Below are positions 4,837-19,234 of a stretch of 26,828 nucleotides of DNA, piece after piece. The notes under the pieces are model-generated. The model searched no databases, had not been told where the DNA came from, and saw nothing but the letters and a program-made list of their open reading frames with translations. Each line of letters opens with the position of its first letter. The stretch's first letter is position 1. Source of the DNA: a virus (lineage: Duplodnaviria > Caudoviricetes); the IMG/VR virus record IMGVR_UViG_3300032087_001786, positions 1 to 26,828 of that record; one strand, given 5' to 3'. The translations under genes and the position numbers were made by a program.

Positions 4837-7179
4837 TTAAGAAAGTAGATACTTGCTACGCAATACTGCGGAAACATCTAAGTCTCCAAGTTCCGGCACG
4901 GTTGGCAGTTCTACTTTCGGGTTCATGTTGATTTGCTCCATTCGGAACTCGGTCAGGAGATCAACATTAAATGTTTTTGTGTAAGCTCTACGGACATATC
5001 CGTGTATTTGTTTAGCGTTACAAGCGTGTGTCACAAAGCAGTCATGTATGGTTGCTAAGTCAAAGTCAACTTGATTCGCTACTTGATGTACAATACATGC
5101 GTCCAGACTGTGGATAAAGTTAGCAGTCACTGCGTTGCCTTGTCCCTTCGGATCAATCTTATCAGCTAATTCAGTTGCTTGAATAGTAACACTTAGGTTT
5201 TGAAACACACTCTCTACATCTATCTTTTTATATTTACGGTAGCTTTGTATTACTTTAAATCCAGTCGGTGTTGTCCATGTAATAGCTGAGTCATAACCTA
5301 AAGCTCGTACACTCTCTCTTAAAAAGTTCATTACTTTATTAACAGGACGACATACTTTGTTAGCTAATCGGTTAACTATTCTACTGATCCAGATAACAGC
5401 AGCTAACATCTCACCTGTACTAGTCCACGGATGATTAATTCCTATACTCTTAAATAAATCCTGTACTAAATTATAGTGGGTAGCACCGTACGGTCTGTTC
5501 ATCACTGCTAACTTAGCAAGCTTCCTACTAAACCCATACTTCATCCAGCTTTGTGCTAGTGTACCACCGTCTTTCTTCAGCTCATCGTACACCATATCAC
5601 TGAACTCAGTGTACATATCATTAGCCTTGTCTTCTTCCACCAGGTTGCACATGCGTCCAGTATTTTTATCTCTCAACAACAGACTTAATATCTGCATACC
5701 ATTGTTACTACAATCTTGACGGACAGGTAAGCGTGATACATATCCGTACCCCTCCTCTGTAAATTGTTTGTACTCTAAACAAAACCGCAGGAAACAGAAC
5801 GGATCGGATGCTTCAGTCCACCAATCAGTACCGTGTGGATCATTCGCAGCTTCAAGTATAAAGTCTTTGCGTTTCTCTACCCACTCCAGTCTTTCCTCTC
5901 GTGTCCCCTTCACTCCCCACATGTTCGCACCGTGTACAAGTACCGCTTCCATGTCCTCTTCATCTACCACTTGCTGACCGTTGTGAAAGTCTAACAAACT
6001 CTTAGCTAAGTCAGTACCCTGTGGATGTAAGTAGTAAGGTAAAGCGTAAACCCTGCCCCTGTAATCACAACGATACGGAAAGTACATCTTGTCCCAGCTT
6101 TTATATATCTTAGCTAGGTGTAGAATCCTACATGTCTGATACCTCTTACTATTATTAGCATCGTTTGCTTGTTTAATATCTTTCTGTTTTAATTTCCAAG
6201 CTCGTAGCTCGTGCGGACAGTCACCGGTGTATCTAGGTTGTTCAGGTATCGTACCAAAGTTAGGAATGTTCCCAACAACTCGCTCGTTCTCCCAACACTT
6301 CAACACGATGTCTAACATGTCTGTATTGATCTGCCACTCGACCTGTTGTAACTTATTACAAGCGGACATAGCGTGGTGATAACTCTTTTCGTAGTCTTCA
6401 AACCATTCGACAGGTTTACCAGTGAAAAACTTTTGAGGAGGCATGTGCTTGACGCTGTACCCACCACCTATCAAACCGTACCAGTCAACAGGACGGTCAG
6501 GTAATGCCATCTTAAATACACGAGTCGTCTCCTTCCATGAATCAAAGCGTTGTACCCAATCTTTAAACTGCTCGGTTGGTACGACTATGCGTTCCGGTTT
6601 GTGTCCCTTCTGTCCACCTGTGTTAAATCCAATCTCAAACAACCCAGTCTCTATCCTTATCTCTTCCAGTAACCACGCACCTAATGCAGTCTTACATTTA
6701 CTATCCCACAGTGTAAACCGTTCCTCCTCATAGTGATAAAACTGTTTCAACTTCATAGCTTTCGACCGATCATCCAGTGCTAACAGGTCAAGCTTGTTCG
6801 GATGCATAGTCTCTAACGCTTTGTCCCACCGTGCTTGGTTCTCAAATGCTTTACCTATCTTGTAAGCCATCCTACCAACAGGTAAGTTATACTGGAGGTT
6901 ATCAAGGAATGTTTGTATGGCTAACACGCTTACCTGATACGGGCACATGTCTAATATGAAGGTAAGAAACAACGGTGTTGTGTGTTCAGTGTTGCCTCCA
7001 AAGGTGTACATGAAATCCTCTACCCTCTTACCCAATCTAGGTGACATTACTCTAAGCATTCTCTTCGCAGATTCCGTCTTACTAGACTCACCCTCTGCTC
7101 GTAGCTTGGCTTGTCGGTTACGGTACTGTGTCCGTCCCCACTCACGCATCCGCCAAACATGTCCTCGTGTATCACTCAT
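4837..7179 (-). CDS. Single-subunit DNA-dependent RNA polymerase, T7 gp1-like
   Basis: DYRGRVY, HPQGTDLAKSLL, motif A QDCSNNGMQ, motif B RKLAKLAVMNRPYG, WTTPTGF, NFIHSLDA, motif C IHDCF. Confidence 0.98.
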   Translation of the reverse strand: MSDTRGHVWRMREWGRTQYRNRQAKLRAEGESSKTESAKRMLRVMSPRLGKRVEDFMYTFGGNTEHTTPLFLTFILDMCPYQVSVLAIQTFLDNLQYNLPVGRMAYKIGKAFENQARWDKALETMHPNKLDLLALDDRSKAMKLKQFYHYEEERFTLWDSKCKTALGAWLLEEIRIETGLFEIGFNTGGQKGHKPERIVVPTEQFKDWVQRFDSWKETTRVFKMALPDRPVDWYGLIGGGYSVKHMPPQKFFTGKPVEWFEDYEKSYHHAMSACNKLQQVEWQINTDMLDIVLKCWENERVVGNIPNFGTIPEQPRYTGDCPHELRAWKLKQKDIKQANDANNSKRYQTCRILHLAKIYKSWDKMYFPYRCDYRGRVYALPYYLHPQGTDLAKSLLDFHNGQQVVDEEDMEAVLVHGANMWGVKGTREERLEWVEKRKDFILEAANDPHGTDWWTEASDPFCFLRFCLEYKQFTEEGYGYVSRLPVRQDCSNNGMQILSLLLRDKNTGRMCNLVEEDKANDMYTEFSDMVYDELKKDGGTLAQSWMKYGFSRKLAKLAVMNRPYGATHYNLVQDLFKSIGINHPWTSTGEMLAAVIWISRIVNRLANKVCRPVNKVMNFLRESVRALGYDSAITWTTPTGFKVIQSYRKYKKIDVESVFQNLSVTIQATELADKIDPKGQGNAVTANFIHSLDACIVHQVANQVDFDLATIHDCFVTHACNAKQIHGYVRRAYTKTFNVDLLTEFRMEQINMNPKVELPTVPELGDLDVSAVLRSKYLLS

Positions 7180-7415
7180 GTATTGTACAGGTTATTAAAC
7201 CAATCCTTTGTCATTATTCTTTGCTTGTTCGTGCGATAAGCTATTAACTTACCGTCCTCGTCACGGACATACTCACCGTTCTTATCCCGCTTGAATCCAG
7301 TGATCTCTGTGTTACTCCAGAAGTGACGACATCCCTCATGCAATGCCTTCTGATCGATCTTAGTATCCCACGGAATATCAGTTAGTTCTGTCTCGTAATA
7401 CTCTTTGTAGTTCAT
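7176..7415 (-). CDS. Hypothetical early protein (79 aa)
   Basis: Stop overlaps the RNAP start (ATGA). Confidence 0.75.
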   Translation of the reverse strand: MNYKEYYETELTDIPWDTKIDQKALHEGCRHFWSNTEITGFKRDKNGEYVRDEDGKLIAYRTNKQRIMTKDWFNNLYNT

Positions 7416-7473
7416 CTCTCAGTATGTCAGCTTCAGCTTCCCAGAAGATACCTTTATTCTTCTCTTGGGTCAT
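7378..7473 (-). CDS. Small hypothetical protein (31 aa, MTQEKNKGIFWEAEADILRDELQRVLRDRTN)
   Basis: 3' half of track ORF 7378..7578, started at the ATG at 7473, which overlaps the end of the preceding gene. Confidence 0.4.
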   Translation of the reverse strand: MTQEKNKGIFWEAEADILRDELQRVLRDRTN

Positions 7474-7627
7474 CGATGTTGTAGTAGAACAGGTACTCTT
7501 CAACTTCTTCCTCGGTTTTAAGTACGCTAATGTTCTCCAGATGATACTCTCTTTCTCGTCTTTCTTTTTCTGCTTCATAATAATGATCTTCGTAAGGTTC
7601 GGTTAACCATGTGTCGTAGCTACTCAT
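7454..7627 (-). CDS. Small acidic hypothetical protein (57 aa, MSSYDTWLTEPYEDHYYEAEKE...DDPREE)
   Basis: Translated by hand (below track cutoff); start overlaps the upstream gene's end; Glu/Tyr-rich. Confidence 0.7.
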   Translation of the reverse strand: MSSYDTWLTEPYEDHYYEAEKERREREYHLENISVLKTEEEVEEYLFYYNIDDPREE

Positions 7628-7778
7628 CTTCTAATTTTTCAAGGTGTTCTTTGTATAGTTGAAGGGACAGGTAAAGGTCAAGCCATCTTCCGTCCAACTC
7701 TCGGTTCATGTCATTATTAAACATGTGGAACATAAGTTCCTCGGTCATGTCTATTGGGTCAAGTAATATCTCTTTCAT
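7620..7778 (-). CDS. Small hypothetical protein (52 aa, MKEILLDPIDMTEELMF...KLEDE)
   Basis: Translated by hand; ATGA coupling with the upstream peptide gene. Confidence 0.7.
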   Translation of the reverse strand: MKEILLDPIDMTEELMFHMFNNDMNRELDGRWLDLYLSLQLYKEHLEKLEDE

Positions 7779-7852
7779 AGTTCGTCATACATCCAAGCTA
7801 AGATTAAAAGCCCAACAATTATAAAGCATCCAAATCCAAGCGTTGTTATCAT
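7775..7852 (-). CDS. Small single-TM peptide (25 aa, MITTLGFGCFIIVGLLILAWMYDEL)
   Basis: Translated by hand; AGGAG upstream; an in-frame alternative ATG at 7873 overlaps the previous stop. Confidence 0.6.
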   Translation of the reverse strand: MITTLGFGCFIIVGLLILAWMYDEL

Positions 7853-7869
7853 ATATTCTCCTTCGGTTA

Positions 7870-8232
7870 TCATGCTTGTTGGTAAGTGTTCCAAGATTCC
7901 TGTAAAGATTCATCCTCGTCCCATACTTTCTTACCTTGTGCGATGATCTCTTCAATAATAAATGGGTGTGTGTGCTTACCTAAAACTTCGTACTCTTCCC
8001 TAGTAATCTCGGTTACATTATCAACGGAAACAATACGATCATTCGACCAAGCTTCTCCGTTGTCCTCGTCAATCCAATCAATACTGAATTGCCAAGATAA
8101 GAAATAGTTCTTCCAGTTATCACCCCAGTTCTCTTTCGGTTGAGTTGAACGGACAGGTATAAGATCCGTATATTCATTGAATCCGTCTTGTGTGTGGTCG
8201 GTTATTAAGTAGTAGTTCATAGTATTATTCAT
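7870..8232 (-). CDS. Hypothetical early protein (120 aa, Trp/acidic-rich)
   Basis: ORF in early cluster; start could be 8220. Confidence 0.8.
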   Translation of the reverse strand: MNNTMNYYLITDHTQDGFNEYTDLIPVRSTQPKENWGDNWKNYFLSWQFSIDWIDEDNGEAWSNDRIVSVDNVTEITREEYEVLGKHTHPFIIEEIIAQGKKVWDEDESLQESWNTYQQA

Positions 8233-8260
8233 TATTCATTAGTAGTAGTAGTAGTTCTAT

Positions 8261-8446
8261 TTAGTAGTCGGTTGATTTAATTACTTTGCAGATGTTGCAG
8301 GAGTAACAATTATCATTAATGATTTGATTGTCATACGCTTCCTGTGCTTCTGCTAGTGTTTCGTAATTGATGTAACGATCTTGTAGGTTACCTTTTATAT
8401 CTCTAAAGATATAAGCTAGGATGTAAGTTTCTGTAGTAGTATTCAT
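8261..8446 (-). CDS. Hypothetical early protein (61 aa)
   Basis: Start overlaps the upstream stop (TAATG). Confidence 0.7.
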   Translation of the reverse strand: MNTTTETYILAYIFRDIKGNLQDRYINYETLAEAQEAYDNQIINDNCYSCNICKVIKSTDY

Positions 8447-8664
8447 TATTTTATTGGGTTGTTAGTTGTTTGTCTTATCATTCCTTCAATCGTACTCGGT
8501 TGCCTAGATAACAACTCGTCTTGTAGTTCAATCAATCGGTCACGGACAGTTACATTATCAGTTAATTTTTCAGCAACGGACAGGTAATGATCGATCAAAG
8601 TCTGGATAGATATATCGTCAAGCGTGGAAAGATCAGATGGATTAGTTGTCATCTTCGGTTTCAA
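8446..8664 (-). CDS. Hypothetical early protein (~70 aa)
   Basis: ORF in tightly packed cluster; true start may be the ATG at 8652. Confidence 0.7.
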   Translation of the reverse strand: MKPKMTTNPSDLSTLDDISIQTLIDHYLSVAEKLTDNVTVRDRLIELQDELLSRQPSTIEGMIRQTTNNPIK

Positions 8665-8866
8665 GAATATCCTTTCTCATGTTCTCAACAGTATAGTCAC
8701 CATTGGCTAAGTCCATAAAGGTTTCAACAATTCCAGAGTAAGACCAGTCAGGATCACCTAACCACTCTATGATTTGTTCTTTTGTAAAGCGGGTAGGTAA
8801 GTCTTCAGTAGGTTCACCATTGTTAGCGTTGTCTAAATCAGGGTTAATATCTTTTAGTAGGTTCAT
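8642..8866 (-). CDS. Hypothetical acidic early protein (74 aa)
   Basis: ORF with an A-rich leader. Confidence 0.75.
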   Translation of the reverse strand: MNLLKDINPDLDNANNGEPTEDLPTRFTKEQIIEWLGDPDWSYSGIVETFMDLANGDYTVENMRKDILETEDDN

Positions 8867-8889
8867 TATTCGGTTTTCTTTCTATTTGT

Positions 8890-9171
8890 TTATTTGTTTT
8901 CTATTAAACATTGTGGACAGGTACTTTGTGCTTCCATTTTAGGAGAAGTCAATCCGCAATCTTTGCAGACAGGTACTTTCTTTAATTCTTTTAACACTTG
9001 CTTTGCACATTCTATAAACTCAGCTTTGCTGGAGCATGTACCATTGAAAGTCGGATAGTCACGGCACTTCCAAACAAGTTGCGGACAGGTACGAAAACGC
9101 TCGCTTTCGATGTAGTAAAAGAAAGCAACTTTGTTTCCGTTGTGGTCGGTTAAGTATTCGGTAACGCTCAC
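8890..9171 (-). CDS. Hypothetical protein with C-terminal Zn ribbon (CKDC...CPQC)
   Basis: GTG start; two CxxC pairs at the C-terminus. Confidence 0.7.
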   Translation of the reverse strand: MSVTEYLTDHNGNKVAFFYYIESERFRTCPQLVWKCRDYPTFNGTCSSKAEFIECAKQVLKELKKVPVCKDCGLTSPKMEAQSTCPQCLIENK

Positions 9172-9173
9172 TC

Positions 9174-9320
9174 TTAAATATCCTCCGTTACATCGCCATC
9201 TTCATCATTGGTACGCCATCGCTTAACGATAACCTCGCCATCGATAGAATCGTCAAAGTAGTAAATATAATTGCCGATGGTAACATAAATAGAGTTGTCG
9301 CTAGGTTGTTGTATTTTCAT
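9174..9320 (-). CDS. Small hypothetical protein (48 aa, MKIQQPSDNSIYVTIGNYIYYFDDS...EDI)
   Basis: Translated by hand; fills the gap between neighbouring genes. Confidence 0.65.
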   Translation of the reverse strand: MKIQQPSDNSIYVTIGNYIYYFDDSIDGEVIVKRWRTNDEDGDVTEDI

Positions 9321-9339
9321 GTCGCTACGCTCCAACGCA

Positions 9340-9528
9340 TTATCTCTCTACGCTCGCAGAATGCTTTTGTTCATATGGTTTTACTGAACCATCTTCTATC
9401 AATGAATTTAACTCGCCCAGTTCTTCTAAGCGGTCTCTCATGTTTGCGTTTTCAAGTGCGTAATTCAAGATGATATCTTTCATTTTAGATATGTGAGATT
9501 CAAGTGCTGTTTTCTGTTCTTTATTCAT
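9340..9528 (-). CDS. Hypothetical early protein (62 aa, helical)
   Basis: ORF in early cluster. Confidence 0.7.
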   Translation of the reverse strand: MNKEQKTALESHISKMKDIILNYALENANMRDRLEELGELNSLIEDGSVKPYEQKHSASVER

Positions 9529-9549
9529 GGTCAGGTAAGGTAATTAAGG

Positions 9550-9858
9550 TTAGTAAGATAAGCCTTTATGCTCTAATATATCTCTCAATCGAATAAGTAC
9601 TTTACCAAACTCCAAAACATCTTTGCTTGTAATGAATTGCTCAAAAGCAAAGTGCCTTAAGGACTGATAACAAAAGCAATCTTCATTTGCACCCATTGGA
9701 CTAGCTCTAAATTGCCAATCGTCTGGCACACCTTCATCTGTTTCAAAGGTAAGATAGTCACAGATAGCAAACAGCCATTGCATACAATTGCCCCAAGGGT
9801 CACCGCTGTCTGTTAGTTTATATTCGTGCTTAAGTGTTTCGTTCATTGGATAGTTCAT
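9550..9858 (-). CDS. Hypothetical early protein (~102 aa)
   Basis: Track ORF 9550..9909 trimmed to the ATG at 9858 (MNYPMNETLK), because the upstream part overlaps another small gene. Confidence 0.75.
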   Translation of the reverse strand: MNYPMNETLKHEYKLTDSGDPWGNCMQWLFAICDYLTFETDEGVPDDWQFRASPMGANEDCFCYQSLRHFAFEQFITSKDVLEFGKVLIRLRDILEHKGLSY

Positions 9859-9875
9859 TTTGATAGTAAGTAAGG

Positions 9876-9962
9876 TTAAGAAGTAAAGTAGATCAAAGCG
9901 AATAGCCAAAATGATCCAAAGATTAAGTTGATGATTAAGAGGTCAAGTAGTTTAGATTTCAT
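9876..9962 (-). CDS. Small single-TM peptide (28 aa, MKSKLLDLLIINLIFGSFWLFALIYFTS)
   Basis: Translated by hand; ATGA overlap with the upstream gene; one hydrophobic helix. Confidence 0.6.
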   Translation of the reverse strand: MKSKLLDLLIINLIFGSFWLFALIYFTS

Positions 9963-10276
9963 GATGTGAACATCTCCCCGTTTTGTGCTAAGATTTCAGC
10001 GTGATATTCTTCAGCTAGGTTTTGTGCTACTAAGTCTCTGACAAATTTAGTAAATGAATATCCAAACTGCTCCTTGTAATCATTAGAAGCTAACAAGCAA
10101 ACAGCATAGTAAGCTTTAGGGGCTTTAGTCATGTCAAAGGAGTTGTTTTTTATCTTTCTTTGAAAGCTCTTTGCAATCGGCACAAGGAAGCGTCCGTAAT
10201 AAGTGGAAGTGTGTTCAATCCATATTTGAAGCTCTCTGACTTCATGGCGTACTGATTCGATAGTTTCTTTATTCAT
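9959..10276 (-). CDS. Hypothetical early protein (105 aa)
   Basis: ORF with an A-rich leader. Confidence 0.8.
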   Translation of the reverse strand: MNKETIESVRHEVRELQIWIEHTSTYYGRFLVPIAKSFQRKIKNNSFDMTKAPKAYYAVCLLASNDYKEQFGYSFTKFVRDLVAQNLAEEYHAEILAQNGEMFTS

Positions 10277-10306
10277 TTGATAGTATAGTTTAATGATTTA
10301 TTATTT

Positions 10307-10936
10307 TTAGTGTTTAGAGTAAGATACATTTGCAATTGATTTATCCCAACAAGCCCGACATTCAAGACATTTATTATTTTGTTTACTAGATGGGCAAGTG
10401 AAGTCAGATGAAGTCACAACGGATGAAGTTTGAACTCCTAACCGCTTCGCAAGTTTGACGGGTGCAGGAAAATCAACCTTATGTGCTGACAATCTGACAA
10501 TTAAGTTATCAGGCAAAGAGCCGTATTGATCGATATAATCCTCAACAATCTTGTACTCTCTTGTCGGTAACCAATGTTTAGTTTTAGGTGTAAGTTTGCA
10601 AACCTCTACAATCTGCCTGAGGTGAGAAATATCTTTCAAATCGCCCGAATCATGCCAACGAAAATAATCCTTTGATTGATTAGATATTAACAAAGCCATT
10701 GAATTGACCCATCTTACATCTGCTAAGGATTGATAGCGTTTCTCTAATGCTTGTTGCACATTGCCAAATCTATACATCCCTTTTAATGCATAGCATCCAT
10801 GACAAACACTGCCTTTTACCTTCGCAAGTTTGCTACCTACATTACATCTAGATGCTGGTATTGAATAAGCTTTGCCCGGCATTTTAGAAGGATTAGATAA
10901 ACCGCCCGTGATGGAATTTGCTTCTTTTATCTTCAT
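10307..10936 (-). CDS. GP88-like protein (Cys-rich, radical-SAM-like/Fe-S candidate)
   Basis: SKMPG, C-x13-CxxCYA, FRWHDSGD, HWLPTRE, NLIVRLS and C-terminal CP-x7-CxxCxxCW resemble the mycobacteriophage gene-88 family as recalled. Confidence 0.75.
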   Translation of the reverse strand: MKIKEANSITGGLSNPSKMPGKAYSIPASRCNVGSKLAKVKGSVCHGCYALKGMYRFGNVQQALEKRYQSLADVRWVNSMALLISNQSKDYFRWHDSGDLKDISHLRQIVEVCKLTPKTKHWLPTREYKIVEDYIDQYGSLPDNLIVRLSAHKVDFPAPVKLAKRLGVQTSSVVTSSDFTCPSSKQNNKCLECRACWDKSIANVSYSKH

Positions 10937-11127
10937 GATTTGATTTCGTCCTCGTTTACAATGTCCACAATGTTTACATAATCATTTGATGACTCAAGAA
11001 CATCTTCAACAAGGGCAGGGCAATGCATATTCGAAAGAAGCTCGTGAACTTTATCTTGTGGGTCTTCCCCATCATTAAGTACAAAGTAGAGAGTCTTGAA
11101 GTCGATTGAGTATAATTTTGATTTCAT
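10933..11127 (-). CDS. Hypothetical acidic early protein (64 aa)
   Basis: ATGA coupling to the GP88-like gene. Confidence 0.75.
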   Translation of the reverse strand: MKSKLYSIDFKTLYFVLNDGEDPQDKVHELLSNMHCPALVEDVLESSNDYVNIVDIVNEDEIKS

Positions 11128-11163
11128 AGTAATAGTAGTTTTTGTTTTCTTTGGTTTATTGGT

Positions 11164-11406
11164 TTATAAATGATCGCTAACATTGAATTGCTTAATAACA
11201 TCAATTCTTTGATCATCAGTAATCGGAGCTCTGTCCACTTCTTTGAGGAATTGCTTGAAAACTTTGTAAGCAGTTTGTGATTTGTGCTTTAATATTTCTT
11301 TTCTTATTTCCCGCTCAGCAATTGCTTTGTTTAAAAGGTATTGGCAGTCGGCAACACGCTTGCCTAGGTGCTCTTCAAATATTTCCCAGTTAATTGTATT
11401 TTTCAT
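11164..11406 (-). CDS. Hypothetical protein, first gene of early cluster (80 aa)
   Basis: First ORF after the non-coding terminal region. Confidence 0.75.
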   Translation of the reverse strand: MKNTINWEIFEEHLGKRVADCQYLLNKAIAEREIRKEILKHKSQTAYKVFKQFLKEVDRAPITDDQRIDVIKQFNVSDHL

Positions 11407-11470
11407 AATAGTAGTAGTTTCATTATTGAATTTGCTCGAATGCTCGAAGCCCGCACTTCCTAACTTTAGA

Positions 11471-11501
11471 AAGCTAGTTGAATTTATAACATATCTGTCA
11501 A
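11471..11501 (-). promoter_or_regulatory. Candidate host sigma70 early promoter
   Basis: Perfect TTGACA (minus strand, 11496-11501) ~90 nt upstream of the first early gene; the -10 is weak (TAGCTT at 19-nt spacing). Confidence 0.45.
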
Positions 11502-11638
11502 GCCCCTTTAAACACTGGTATTGCGAGCCATAGAATGCTGTAAGATGTTGAATAAGTACTACTTACAAAACTTGAAAAAAACTTTAAATTATTTTTGATG
11601 ATTTGCTGTAAAGTGCTGTTATTCAATCAATAAAAAAG

Positions 11639-11647
11639 TTATTCACA
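11639..11647 (+). promoter_or_regulatory. DnaA-box-like 9-mer TTATTCACA
   Basis: Matches the TTWTNCACA consensus; single copy in AT-rich DNA. Confidence 0.35.
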
Positions 11648-11750
11648 ATTTCTAATATACTAAGCTAAAAATCAATCTCGCATCAATTTGTTTTGTAAAT
11701 AGCTAACTTGGAATAGTTTATGAGAATAAGATTTCATTTGAATTGCTTAT

Positions 11751-11884
11751 TGAGAATGAATCTCATAATTGAGACAAAGTTGAGAATGGAACATCGAAAG
11801 AGAAAAACACATACAAAGCCAAATGCAAACTACTTGCAATAACGGAACCAAGATTAATCGATATGTTAATGCAACTTACTTGCA
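11751..11884. promoter_or_regulatory. Cluster of 15-bp palindromic operators (Fur-family-like)
   Basis: TGAGAATGAATCTCA (11751-11765), TGCAAACTACTTGCA (11824-11838), TGCAACTTACTTGCA (11870-11884); extra TGAGA half-sites at 11721, 11770, 11781. Confidence 0.5.
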
Positions 11885-11961
11885 ATAAGGAAAAAAAATA
11901 AGCGATAAAACAGCGAAAGTTTGCCGTTGTTTGCATAAGTCGTTGATAATCAACAAAAGTA

Positions 11962-11989
11962 ATTAGACATAATATATATAGTGCGAAGT
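11962..11989 (-). other. dif-like XerC/XerD recombination site
   Basis: Minus strand reads ACTTCGCACTA-TATATA-TTATGTCTAAT versus E. coli dif GGTGCGCATAA-TGTATA-TTATGTTAAAT: 11-6-11 layout, XerD arm 9/11 identical. Confidence 0.75.
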
Positions 11990-12087
11990 ACACCCCCCCC
12001 TGTCCTATAATAATCTTACGGGTATGCGGGGGTAATTAATGCGGGCGTATATAGCGTAAGCCTCTCAGATTTTTCTATCGAAACTTT

Positions 12088-12300
12088 TTAGAAGTTAGGC
12101 TCAAACGGCTCGTCGTCGTCCTCTATAACATCCTCTTCCATTGTGAATATAACTTCATCAGTATCAGTCAACACCGACAGTTTAGCGAAGTCCAGGCATC
12201 CTGCTATAGTGTAGTCGTTAAGATCGTACTCTTTCTTAAACCTGTATATGAGCTTTGCTAGTTCGTACTGTAGGGTGTCTGTTTGTTCGTTGATATTCAT
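12088..12300 (-). CDS. Hypothetical protein (70 aa, acidic C-terminus)
   Basis: Isolated ORF preceded by a promoter-like TCGACA-N16-TATTAT. Confidence 0.75.
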   Translation of the reverse strand: MNINEQTDTLQYELAKLIYRFKKEYDLNDYTIAGCLDFAKLSVLTDTDEVIFTMEEDVIEDDDEPFEPNF

Positions 12301-12795: not shown

Positions 12796-14484
12796 CTACA
12801 TCCATAACTGAGCACTAACTTTGTTATTAATCTTATGAAAGCTATCAGTAAACTTTGTTAACTCTTCTTCTAACAGTTCTTGTTGTCTATCAATCATCGA
12901 TTGGTTAACATCAGCAGCCATCTGTGCTGTCCAATAACCAACAGCTATTGATAACGCATCAAGACGGTCATCATGTACTAAGCTACCTCTATCTCTTGTT
13001 ATTCTAGATAACTGATACATAAGCATGTACCTGGTTTGTTGTTCAATAGGATAGCTAAGAGCTGATCTGTAGTCATCGTTGATGACGGAAGGATCGATGA
13101 TTAGACGGTGACTATTGAGGACTGGTTCCAGAGTATCTACTATACGAAGTTCTTTCTGTTTGTTATGTCTTACTTCTTCTATTGTTACCGGATAGGTTGT
13201 TCTAAACAGAGGCTTTATCAGCTCCATAAACATACCGTCACCAAAGTTAGACTCTATAACTACCTTATTAACTTTGTTATCTTTTGCTATAGCTACCAGT
13301 TCTTTAAGAGTCTTTTCATCGTACCCACCTTTTATACCACCAGCAGCTGGAACAAACAGTTGACCGTTTAGCATCTTAACAACAGCGTACCCAGTTTCAT
13401 CCTTACCACGACCAGACGGGTCAATAGATAAGACAGAGCCTGTGTACGGTATCATATCCCCAACAGTGTTAGCAGGTCTTCTGTATCGATCTCCAGCTAG
13501 TCCTACATTAGGTAGTTCTCTATCACAGTTATCAGGATCACTAGACCACACGATCTTTTCAGGAGCTACATCAGTATCAACATCTGTTATAACTAGATCG
13601 TTAATCTTTAGTGGGTATCTATCAGCGTCCGATAGCTTAGGATTAAGCATGAACTGTAGAGCGTACCCGGTCCGACCGTACGACATCTTTCTTTCTTCCA
13701 GGTCTAAGTCAGTGAACCGTAGAGGTTCTGTAGAAGTACCAACAGTCTCAGGAGATATGTTATCTGCTATAAGGGGTGCTAGATCGCCTCCGTAGTTATT
13801 TATAGCTTCTTCCTCACCAGGATACTCAGACGACCATATACGGCTCTTGTAGCCCCGCTCACGCAGCTTGTTGTATATACTGTCCTCACATTGTGGAGTA
13901 CCAAGAAAGATGATACGGGAGGAGTCTAGTGGTTTTATGATAGCGTCAAACTCTTTTACTTGTTCATCCAGCTTATCTCTCATTCCTTGCGTAGCACTGT
14001 TGTTAGCTACCTCTACATCGTCTGCTACGATTATATCAGCACGAGAACCTGTTAGCTGGGATGATATACCAAGTGACTTAACAGAGGGAGCGTGCGAAGC
14101 TGGAGCAGGTCCTACATCAAATGCTATCTTACTGAATCGTTGGTTCTCTGATGGCTTTAGATGACTAAGTATAGGTATCTCTTGAATGATACGCAGGGTA
14201 AAAGTAGAGAAGTCATCTGATCTATTCTTAGATGCTGATACAACAAGTATGTTCTTGGATGGGTTCAGTAGCAACTGATGTACTACAAAAGCACTTGTTA
14301 TCCACGACTTACCTACACCACGGAACGCCATGATAACAGACCGCTTAGGACCGTTTTGCAGGTACTCAGCGATATCGTATTGTAGCGTTGTTGGGTCTGG
14401 TAGATTAAGGTGTTTCCAAACCAGGAATAGAAAGTTTCTAAAGTCCCGTAGCTTGGGCGGTATCTCTTGGTGTTTCTTCTTCAA
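12796..14484 (-). CDS. terL: Terminase large subunit, T7 gp19-like
   Basis: Walker A AFRGVGKS, Walker B IIVADDVE, LGTPQ, nuclease IDPSGRGKDETG, IESNFGDGM, HDDRLDA; TTG start overlapping TerS. Confidence 0.97.
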   Translation of the reverse strand: MKKKHQEIPPKLRDFRNFLFLVWKHLNLPDPTTLQYDIAEYLQNGPKRSVIMAFRGVGKSWITSAFVVHQLLLNPSKNILVVSASKNRSDDFSTFTLRIIQEIPILSHLKPSENQRFSKIAFDVGPAPASHAPSVKSLGISSQLTGSRADIIVADDVEVANNSATQGMRDKLDEQVKEFDAIIKPLDSSRIIFLGTPQCEDSIYNKLRERGYKSRIWSSEYPGEEEAINNYGGDLAPLIADNISPETVGTSTEPLRFTDLDLEERKMSYGRTGYALQFMLNPKLSDADRYPLKINDLVITDVDTDVAPEKIVWSSDPDNCDRELPNVGLAGDRYRRPANTVGDMIPYTGSVLSIDPSGRGKDETGYAVVKMLNGQLFVPAAGGIKGGYDEKTLKELVAIAKDNKVNKVVIESNFGDGMFMELIKPLFRTTYPVTIEEVRHNKQKELRIVDTLEPVLNSHRLIIDPSVINDDYRSALSYPIEQQTRYMLMYQLSRITRDRGSLVHDDRLDALSIAVGYWTAQMAADVNQSMIDRQQELLEEELTKFTDSFHKINNKVSAQLWM

Positions 14485-17606: not shown

Positions 17607-19234
17607 CAGGTTTTGATTAGATAGTTCAGGATAAGAGTCGGCTGAACATTGTTGTGGGAGGAGGATGCGTCTGTCCCGGTCGTGAGAACATTATTGGGAT
17701 TACCTGTTAAAGTACTGACAAATGCGGTTCTAGGATCGGGTCCACCAGCACCTGTTCGAGAAGTATTATCAGCAGTTACAGTATGCTTGTGGTTCCGCAG
17801 ACCCGATTGTGCAGCTGTATTGAGGTGTGTTTCGTGTCCCCCGTAGTTACCTAGAAAATCTCCGTTTACTCCATTTATTGTACTGCCAGTTGGATTAGTC
17901 AAACGATTAGCGGATGTACCACCCATATTGTCTAAACCTGCAATAACACGACCTCTTAGGTCAGGAAGCTTGAATACATAACCAACACCTTGAACATTAG
18001 TTAAACCATCTTGAAACGCAGTGCCCCCGTAGGTATTTGATATTACTTCATGTAACTCTTTGTAGGTGTAGGTATTTAATGCACTACCATCACATACAAG
18101 ATAACCAGTAGGTGCGGTTGCACCTGCAAAAGAAATAACTGTACCCCTAGGAACTGAACTAGGAAGAGCGGATGTAGCGATCTTATCTGAGGTAACCGCT
18201 CCATCAGCAATCATAGCAGTCTGTACTTGAACTTCCGAAACAACTCCACCTGCGGTGGTTGATCCAAGAACTCGATTAGCAGTTGTTACATTTTGAATCT
18301 TCGGGTAGGTAACTTGATCGTCAGCTATGTGTGCAGTATCAATACTACCATTTACATAGTGTTCACTGTCTATAGAATCGTCTGCTATCTTACTACCGTT
18401 TACTGCGTCTGCATCGAGCTTAGCGGTAGTAACAGCACCAGCATCGAGCTTAGCGGTAGTAACAGCACCAGTAGCGATCTTAGCAGTAGTGACAGAACCG
18501 TTATTTATTTGATTTGATCCTATAAACTCTGTAACAGCTGCACCAAATCCTCGCTGAATGATAACAATATCCTCTCCACCTGCAAGTGTGGTATTAATTG
18601 TTAATGTATCTGTATCAGGATTGACCGTATAATCAACAGTAGGTTCTTGTACTAAACCGTTAATGCTTACATCGTATACAGTATCACCACTGATCTCAGC
18701 ACCAGTCACAGTGTATGTAGTATTAGTACCAGCGGTTCCTGCAAATTGCCACTTCAACGGAGCATCAGAACCGTACAATCCTTGGTTTACTTTGTTATCT
18801 ACATAGAGCTTAGTGGAGGCGTCTGTAGTATCTGTAGGACTCCCTAAATTCTTTATTCGTAATCCCTTAGCGTCCCACTGTGTACCCCCAACCTCGACTT
18901 GCATAGAAGCATCGTTTAATTCACCGATTTCTTCAGCTAAGTATCTGTTGTGTAAATATGCTCTATCTAGTTCAGCCTCAGTAAGTACTGAACCATTCTG
19001 GAAGTCTACAAGGTTAGTGCCTCGTTGGCTCCTTCTGCGTACTCGGACGATGTCACCAGCAGTTGCACCACTGTCTAATACTACTTTAGTAGCCGGAGTA
19101 GTAACGATAGAGAAGAGAGTCGTAGCAACACCATTTATTTCTACGGTTACATGTTCGTCTTCAAGATAAGGAAATGAGAAAGCAAAGTCAGTCTGAGCTG
19201 CTGTTGCTGTGTAGTCTACATAGGTTGTTGCCAT
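17606..19234 (-). CDS. Tail fibre protein, T7 gp17-like N-terminus with tail-collar domain
   Basis: F.FSFPYL..EHV.V, VDFQNGSVLTEAELD, RIKNLGSP...DASTK.YVD; 10-aa AVTTAK repeats; collar GTVISFAG..APTGYLVCDG and FKLPDLRGRV; C-terminal HNNVQPTLILNYLIK. Confidence 0.93.
   Translation of the reverse strand: MATTYVDYTATAAQTDFAFSFPYLEDEHVTVEINGVATTLFSIVTTPATKVVLDSGATAGDIVRVRRRSQRGTNLVDFQNGSVLTEAELDRAYLHNRYLAEEIGELNDASMQVEVGGTQWDAKGLRIKNLGSPTDTTDASTKLYVDNKVNQGLYGSDAPLKWQFAGTAGTNTTYTVTGAEISGDTVYDVSINGLVQEPTVDYTVNPDTDTLTINTTLAGGEDIVIIQRGFGAAVTEFIGSNQINNGSVTTAKIATGAVTTAKLDAGAVTTAKLDADAVNGSKIADDSIDSEHYVNGSIDTAHIADDQVTYPKIQNVTTANRVLGSTTAGGVVSEVQVQTAMIADGAVTSDKIATSALPSSVPRGTVISFAGATAPTGYLVCDGSALNTYTYKELHEVISNTYGGTAFQDGLTNVQGVGYVFKLPDLRGRVIAGLDNMGGTSANRLTNPTGSTINGVNGDFLGNYGGHETHLNTAAQSGLRNHKHTVTADNTSRTGAGGPDPRTAFVSTLTGNPNNVLTTGTDASSSHNNVQPTLILNYLIKT
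18411..18500. repeat. 30-bp tandem repeat in tail fibre
   Basis: GCATCGAGCTTAGCGGTAGTAACAGCACCA exactly twice (18411-18470) plus a degenerate third copy; encodes GAVTTAKLDA. Confidence 0.95.

Follow-up and report, generated by a model that had tools for sequence, protein, structure and literature searches.

The window, by which the whole analysed stretch of 26,828 nucleotides is meant, carries at positions 11962 to 11989 a mimic of the chromosomal dif site of Opitutales (Verrucomicrobiota)—that is, a predicted XerC/XerD site in a T7-like phage—and the terminal repeat of the phage genome is predicted to contain it. The reading preferred here, to which we give an even chance, is that XerC and XerD of the host recombine the phage's own two copies of the site, joining the genome ends. 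A broader proposal, rated just short of even, is that several unrelated lineages of lytic tailed phages have, each on its own, equipped their terminal repeats with a host dif mimic whose spacer is private, and that host XerCD circularises or multimerises their DNA.

Genomic context of the dif-like site

At 26.8 kb, the window record covers part of a T7-like genome, and the presence of a single-subunit RNA polymerase together with T7-type replication, capsid, tail, and terminase genes (PHROGs, Pfam) places it in Autographiviridae. The clade to which it belongs, marked by its terminase large subunit (TerL), comprises 409 TerL-encoding stretches in IMG/VR. The relevant features are as follows.

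4837..7179, minus strand: T7-type RNA polymerase (phrog_414), without an integrase upstream
7176..11406, minus strand: early small-gene block; no recombinase or repressor found
11789..12057, minus strand: predicted direct terminal repeat of ~269 bp, set on the left by the end motif and on the right by a conserved T-rich motif
11942..11954, no strand assigned: short palindrome adjoining the site, conserved in most relatives
11962..11989, minus strand: dif-like site, with XerC arm 11989-11979, 6-bp spacer 11978-11973, and XerD arm 11972-11962
11993..12005, minus strand: run of G immediately upstream of the site, differing from KOPS at one base
12032..12073, minus strand: T7-type genome-end motif, 41 nt from A-run to C-run; predicted left genome end near 12057
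12088..12300, minus strand: last late gene, 70 aa, kept in the clade, no family
12796..14484, minus strand: T7-type TerL, the clade marker (phrog_38, E 3.6e-113)

On the minus strand, the site reads ACTTCGCACTA TATATA TTATGTCTAAT and occurs once in the window, within the ORF-free gap 11407-12087 that separates the late from the early gene block, in agreement with the non-coding terminal location given in the first-pass annotation. Scored with a weight matrix built from 110 Verrucomicrobiota dif sites, it reaches 37.5 bits, the runner-up place in the window being at -8.4 and the top of 30 block shuffles at -2.8; the suggested comparison of a dif matrix with shuffled DNA thus came out in its favour, and the 28-bp 11-6-11 arrangement of XerC and XerD arms was confirmed, with both arms matching host dif. 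A sigma-70 promoter at the site was rejected, there being no excess above shuffles, and named phages matched the terminal region only weakly by blastn. Many relatives show, ~2,960 bp ahead of the end of TerL, a look-alike of the XerD arm that proved to be the start of a gene and not a site.

No recombinase was found by PHROGs and Pfam among the ORFs from the site to the RNA polymerase, as had been claimed. Since the window record spans only 26.8 kb, the absence of an integrase from the whole genome, which the first-pass annotation had proposed to check, rests on relatives: PF00589 was detected in 0 of 10 clade records, one of them complete (G469, 41.7 kb), and in 14 of 14 control genomes, and Pfam identified no recombinase or repressor in 44 further ORFs of G469 and 17 of the window. 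An integrase lies upstream of the RNA polymerase in the named relatives CRP-171, HTVC011P, LUZ100, and S45-C18, and is reported for 625 of 1143 populations of marine relatives (PMC12361551). In the sequence examined of these integrase-bearing T7-like phages, no match to E. coli dif arms was found, the best having 6-8 mismatches in 22 positions (for CRP-171 and S45-C18, in partial sequence). Elsewhere in the window, the early block contains a GP88-family (PF17338) gene at 10307-10936 that is patchily present across the clade, and a gene for a 542-aa tail fibre has 30-bp periodic repeats at 18402-18493.

Match to the chromosomal dif of Opitutales

A genome search with a degenerate pattern derived from the phage sites returned at least 120 genome hits. 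Verrucomicrobiota stands in the titles of 110 of the 120 listed, Opitutia making up the majority, and in most of the remaining ten the XerC arm or the spacer is unusual. The window site is identical at 27 of 28 positions to the dif of Lentimonas sp. L161, differing by one base. The motif was found in 87 of 101 genomes of the Lentimonas family, as a single copy in 86 of these 87; a second marine family has it in 66 of its 76 genomes. In G002, GC skew flips at the motif, with 9 of 10 blocks positive before and 10 of 10 negative after it; a weaker sign change was observed at the motif in G003. Furthermore, in these two long-contig genomes, GGGNAGGG points toward the motif in ratios of 36:13 and 40:12, with its polarity flipping there. 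The motif therefore behaves as a chromosomal dif of Opitutales, given its single copy and the switch of skew (tested in two genomes) and polarity. XerD-family genes scored above the cut-off in three of five Opitutales genomes, and a second site in G422 was set aside, as ordinary bacterial genes lie upstream of it. By the dif match, the host of the phage clade is likely to be a member of Opitutales, and the expectation that the best-matching dif would suggest a host was borne out by the Lentimonas match.

Conservation, spacers, and orientation among relatives

Conservation was assessed in 80 TerL relatives of 89-99% identity, which are not independent and include some reassemblies; 52 have at least 1,500 bp downstream. 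The site was found at the same place, 0.6-1.3 kb after TerL, in 44 of these 52 loci, so that the positional conservation asked about earlier holds among related contigs. In three further loci, the XerD arm is kept and the XerC arm is degenerate; two (L009, L036) have a decayed inverted site with a disrupted XerD arm; and the remaining three (L012, L014, L021), probably a single lineage, are without a site. Because it is missing or decayed in these five loci, the site is dispensable in some phages. An XerC-arm-like stub is left before the intact site in L416, and this stub and the decayed sites are signs of turnover. In a wider scan, the site was also found in clade members with TerL identities of 74-86%; over the whole range of 74-99%, the XerD arm is kept while the flanks vary.

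For the comparison of arms and spacers, 88 distinct sites near the end motif were collected, a few of which may fall outside the clade. Nine of the 11 positions of the XerD arm are invariant among them, in a search that itself demanded a near-exact arm. The spacers, in contrast, are of 31 different kinds: 38 of the 88 equal one of six common host spacers, the TATATA of the window among them; 55 equal some host spacer; and 33 are absent from the 110 host sites. Site orientation was counted in the relative-locus set, the 88-site set being biased by its one-orientation scan, and 29 sites were found in the same orientation and 19 inverted. Both orientation and spacer differ between sister phages on the TerL tree (L010/L015, L072/L075, L079/L080, and the window versus L001), the window and L001, its nearest relative, having opposite orientations.

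Predicted position in the terminal repeat

A spacing of 41 nt between an A-run and a C-run at the genome end is common to T7, vRsoP-WF2, LUZ100, and the window, and 58 clade loci show values of 40-44 nt. In T7 and vRsoP-WF2, 16 nt separate the A-run from the start of the repeat, and in the annotation of LUZ100, 28 nt; the RpY2 record likewise begins at the +16 position, and the repeat of Syn5 starts 24 nt before the C-run. By homology of this motif, the left end of the genome is therefore predicted near 12057, which would put the site 68-96 bp inside the repeat. With the T-rich motif as its other boundary, the repeat would measure 269 bp in the window and 262-314 bp in 39 of the 58 clade loci, the terminal repeats of reference phages being 160-281 bp. 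A site in the predicted repeat would mean two direct copies, with the same spacer, per virion genome. Read depth was set aside as proof of the repeat, since the summed depth of Logan contigs is swamped by co-occurring relatives. The end motif could also serve to predict the genome ends of other T7-like contigs, and suggests that the start of the annotated LUZ100 repeat was placed 12 bases late.

An exact GGGNAGGG (KOPS) precedes the site in 27 of 44 relatives, with one mismatch in the window, and two of the five exact KOPS matches in six clade records are located at the site. G-runs also occur at the same place in T7-like phages without the site. KOPS was not retained as a firm part of the arrangement, as it is not separable from the end motif, and the G-run at 11993..12005 may be only a piece of that motif.

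Parallels in cultured and other tailed phages

A search with E. coli dif matched 269 phage records, including 108 that are named Escherichia phages; among the 60 of the 269 matches listed, the tailed phages are mostly rV5-like by name or size. In Hena1, perfect arms of the E. coli type lie within the annotated 519-bp repeat, and EdH4 has E. coli-type arms at two places; both spacers are two bases off that of E. coli dif, the Erwinia case being compared with E. coli only. In the T7-like Ralstonia phage RpY2, which has no annotated integrase, the site lies in both of the ~237-bp end repeats (L553:129-156 and 40039-40066), and three relatives (L555-L557) have it at the same place. The dif arms of the Ralstonia phages stand ~130 bp inside the terminal repeat, and all four spacers differ from that of the R. 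solanacearum dif reported in PMC2731167; over all cultured parallels, 0 of 6 spacers equal the reference dif. The layout is that of the clade—host-type arms with a non-host spacer, in or at the position of a terminal repeat—in Serkorvirus-like Ralstonia phages and Vequintavirinae that differ from it in host and in arm sequence, and that show no dif annotation in the records consulted. These cultured phages belong to lytic groups or have no annotated integrase.

Opitutales-type dif also adjoins a phrog_2 terminase gene in other groups of tailed phages (L309, L337, L340, L347, L316, L336, and G484:C82, the last at L559:8211-8238). One phrog_2-type contig belongs to the bin of an Opitutales genome, and its spacer is not that of the chromosomal dif there. 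Among the matches listed, 17 records of Rheinheimera Barba phages match E. coli dif in part, at places where no feature is annotated.

Proposed function of the site

In the preferred reading, XerC and XerD would bind both direct copies in the terminal repeats and then cross over. An intramolecular crossover would turn the linear molecule, once injected, into a circle retaining a single repeat, whereas an intermolecular one would give head-to-tail multimers; crossover could also resolve multimers of circles, and a possible benefit is the hiding of free DNA ends. The first-pass annotation had offered three uses, namely integration at host dif, resolution of circular or concatemeric replication products, and interference with host chromosome segregation. 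Use on the phage's own DNA fits best of the three, and the predicted position in the repeat adds the joining of ends to it. On this reading, the spacer is free to drift because the two copies in one genome are always identical, and a free spacer together with a free orientation is what self-recombination predicts. Acinetobacter pdif sites are reported to recombine if their spacers are identical or one base apart (PMC13141974), and drift of the spacer would also limit crossover with the host chromosome. Several points count against end-joining. The complete relative G469 keeps a T7 gp6-type exonuclease, so that the classical route to concatemers exists without Xer. Canonical dif recombination is described as requiring FtsK at the septum (PMC9226527), and the KOPS-like run of the window is imperfect. 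In addition, 38 of the 88 phage spacers equal a common host spacer, that of the window included, and T7 itself is not known to circularise.

Binding without crossover is a rather unlikely alternative, in which XerC and XerD bound 70-100 bp from the ends would act as a shield or roadblock against end-loading nucleases and translocases, or the many phage copies would titrate XerCD and FtsK, stalling host division. It would account for the retention of the arms and their 6-bp spacing with spacer sequence and orientation left free, and for a site near the predicted first-injected end; FtsK translocation is reported to stop at XerCD-dif (PMC2800217), and a host defence is described that targets free phage DNA ends (10.1101/2025.08.30.673261). 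A repeated end is not needed for binding, yet RpY2 and Hena1, whose ends are checkable, have the site there, and one site per end would make a weak decoy early in infection. That the site is instead a neutral relic, or a chance likeness in AT-rich DNA without present function, is very improbable: loss or decay in five loci and a degenerate XerC arm in three would suit a relic, but not the score of 37.5 bits against a best shuffle of -2.8, the XerD arm kept across TerL identities of 74-99% amid varying flanks, or the parallel cases in unrelated phage groups.

Integration as an integrative mobile element that exploits Xer (IMEX) is also unlikely; here the circularised phage would use the site as attP and integrate at host dif, stably or transiently, XerC-first as in VGJphi. 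In its favour, the clade yielded no integrase, which marine relatives frequently carry (PMC12361551), and the spacer of the window is the one that prevails in the Lentimonas family (counted by hand in 76 of 88 sites, with a pattern that leaned to such spacers). In 53 of 88 phage sites, the triplet on the XerC side is the one most frequent in the host, and part of the spacer is reported to suffice for the XerC-first route (PMC5357621). The spacer most frequent in the second marine family (41 of 66, hand count) nevertheless occurs in 0 of 88 phage sites, and Pfam recognised no repressor in the ORFs of G469 and the window. For junctions, a one-orientation pattern of end motif plus site was searched, giving at least 119 metagenome contigs, 117 with at least 100 bp after the site: clade phage DNA continues past the site in 114 of these 117 listed, and the other three begin with a clade-type flank. 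One candidate phage-host junction, L447, in which unrelated fragments follow such a flank, is most likely a chimera. Opitutales genomes yielded no clade TerL, the distant hits (1 of 401, 1 of 76 on the same contig, and 1 of 101; 65% and 46% identity) being free phage contigs without the site; G361:C3, G420:C27, and G484:C82 were likewise rejected as prophages, since they are binned but free phage contigs on which host DNA was not recognised. No window protein was found beside the at least 120 genome hits listed (80 with up to 4 kb of flank), and the ORFs of five clade genomes gave one short hit. The proposed search for prophage junctions thus found none in metagenome contigs or Opitutales genomes, although contigs would miss rare integration, since T7-like cyanophages are reported to integrate in only 0.3-1% of the cells that they infect (PMC8776855). 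Mechanism gives a stronger argument than these absences: a cassette between two canonical dif sites is described as unstable, and double-stranded DNA IMEXs are reported to avoid this by a degenerate XerD arm, an alteration of that arm marking the elements that stay integrated (PMC9226527), whereas the XerD arm of the phage is intact and equal to the host's. Neither an anti-excision device (degenerate XerD arm, single-stranded DNA hairpin) nor an XafT-like activator was found, Pfam and PHROGs giving no hit of that type, though most early ORFs have no family. The claim of integration at host dif accordingly found no support, with no junctions, an intact XerD arm, and many spacers unlike any host's.

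Novelty and implications

T7-like phages are regarded as replicating as linear DNA, needing no host recombinase; end-joining driven by the host, if true, would alter this picture. The genes xerC, xerD, and ftsK would become host factors for lytic infection, a use of Xer would be added that is distinct from IMEX integration and plasmid dimer resolution, and the dif mimic would be a sequence tag naming the hosts of uncultured phages. The site also points to Opitutales as the likely host group of a large T7-like clade from the sea. The end-joining idea is testable at once, because cultured E. coli phages share the layout. A literature search, which took in few subscription papers and no supplements, turned up no account of dif sites within tailed-phage terminal repeats, and a recent survey of Autographiviridae from the sea (PMC12361551) uses neither "Verrucomicrob" nor "Xer" in its main text.

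Comparison with known Xer and phage systems

With the chromosomal dif/XerCD system of Opitutales, the clade shares the 11-6-11 layout and an identical XerD arm; it differs in that the phage copy is on a linear genome, in a far more varied spacer, and in a looser XerC arm, whose inner seven bases are canonical in 22 of 88 phage sites as compared with 106 of 110 host sites, the host count being partly fixed by the search pattern. HTVC011P, CRP-171, LUZ100, and S45-C18 have the same gene order, RNA polymerase, and end motif, and TerL proteins 55-65% identical, but unlike the clade carry their integrase before the RNA polymerase.

P1 circularises its terminally redundant DNA by Cre/loxP, and site-specific crossover of repeated ends would similarly close the linear genome of the clade. 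P1, however, is temperate and encodes its own recombinase, also described as a dimer resolvase (PMC3556154), whereas the enzyme used by the clade would be that of the host.

Like the IMEXs (CTXphi, VGJphi, TLCphi, GGI, and dif-type DJR phages), the clade has a dif-like site and no integrase of its own. The IMEX phages described in the papers cited here are, in contrast, non-tailed, and IMEX sites often have longer spacers or degenerate XerD arms, while the clade arm is intact and no integrated copy was found (PMC3025954, PMC5357621, PMC9226527, PMC12715192). Plasmid Xer sites (Acinetobacter pdif, cer, psi) resemble the phage site in their host-type arms and private spacers, with copies that share a spacer recombining (PMC13141974), the phage differing in having one site per genome unit. 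A cer/psi-type resolution site, with an oriented accessory region of ~180 bp by the XerC arm (PMC5357621), does not fit a phage site that flips against its flanks (29:19), and was rejected.
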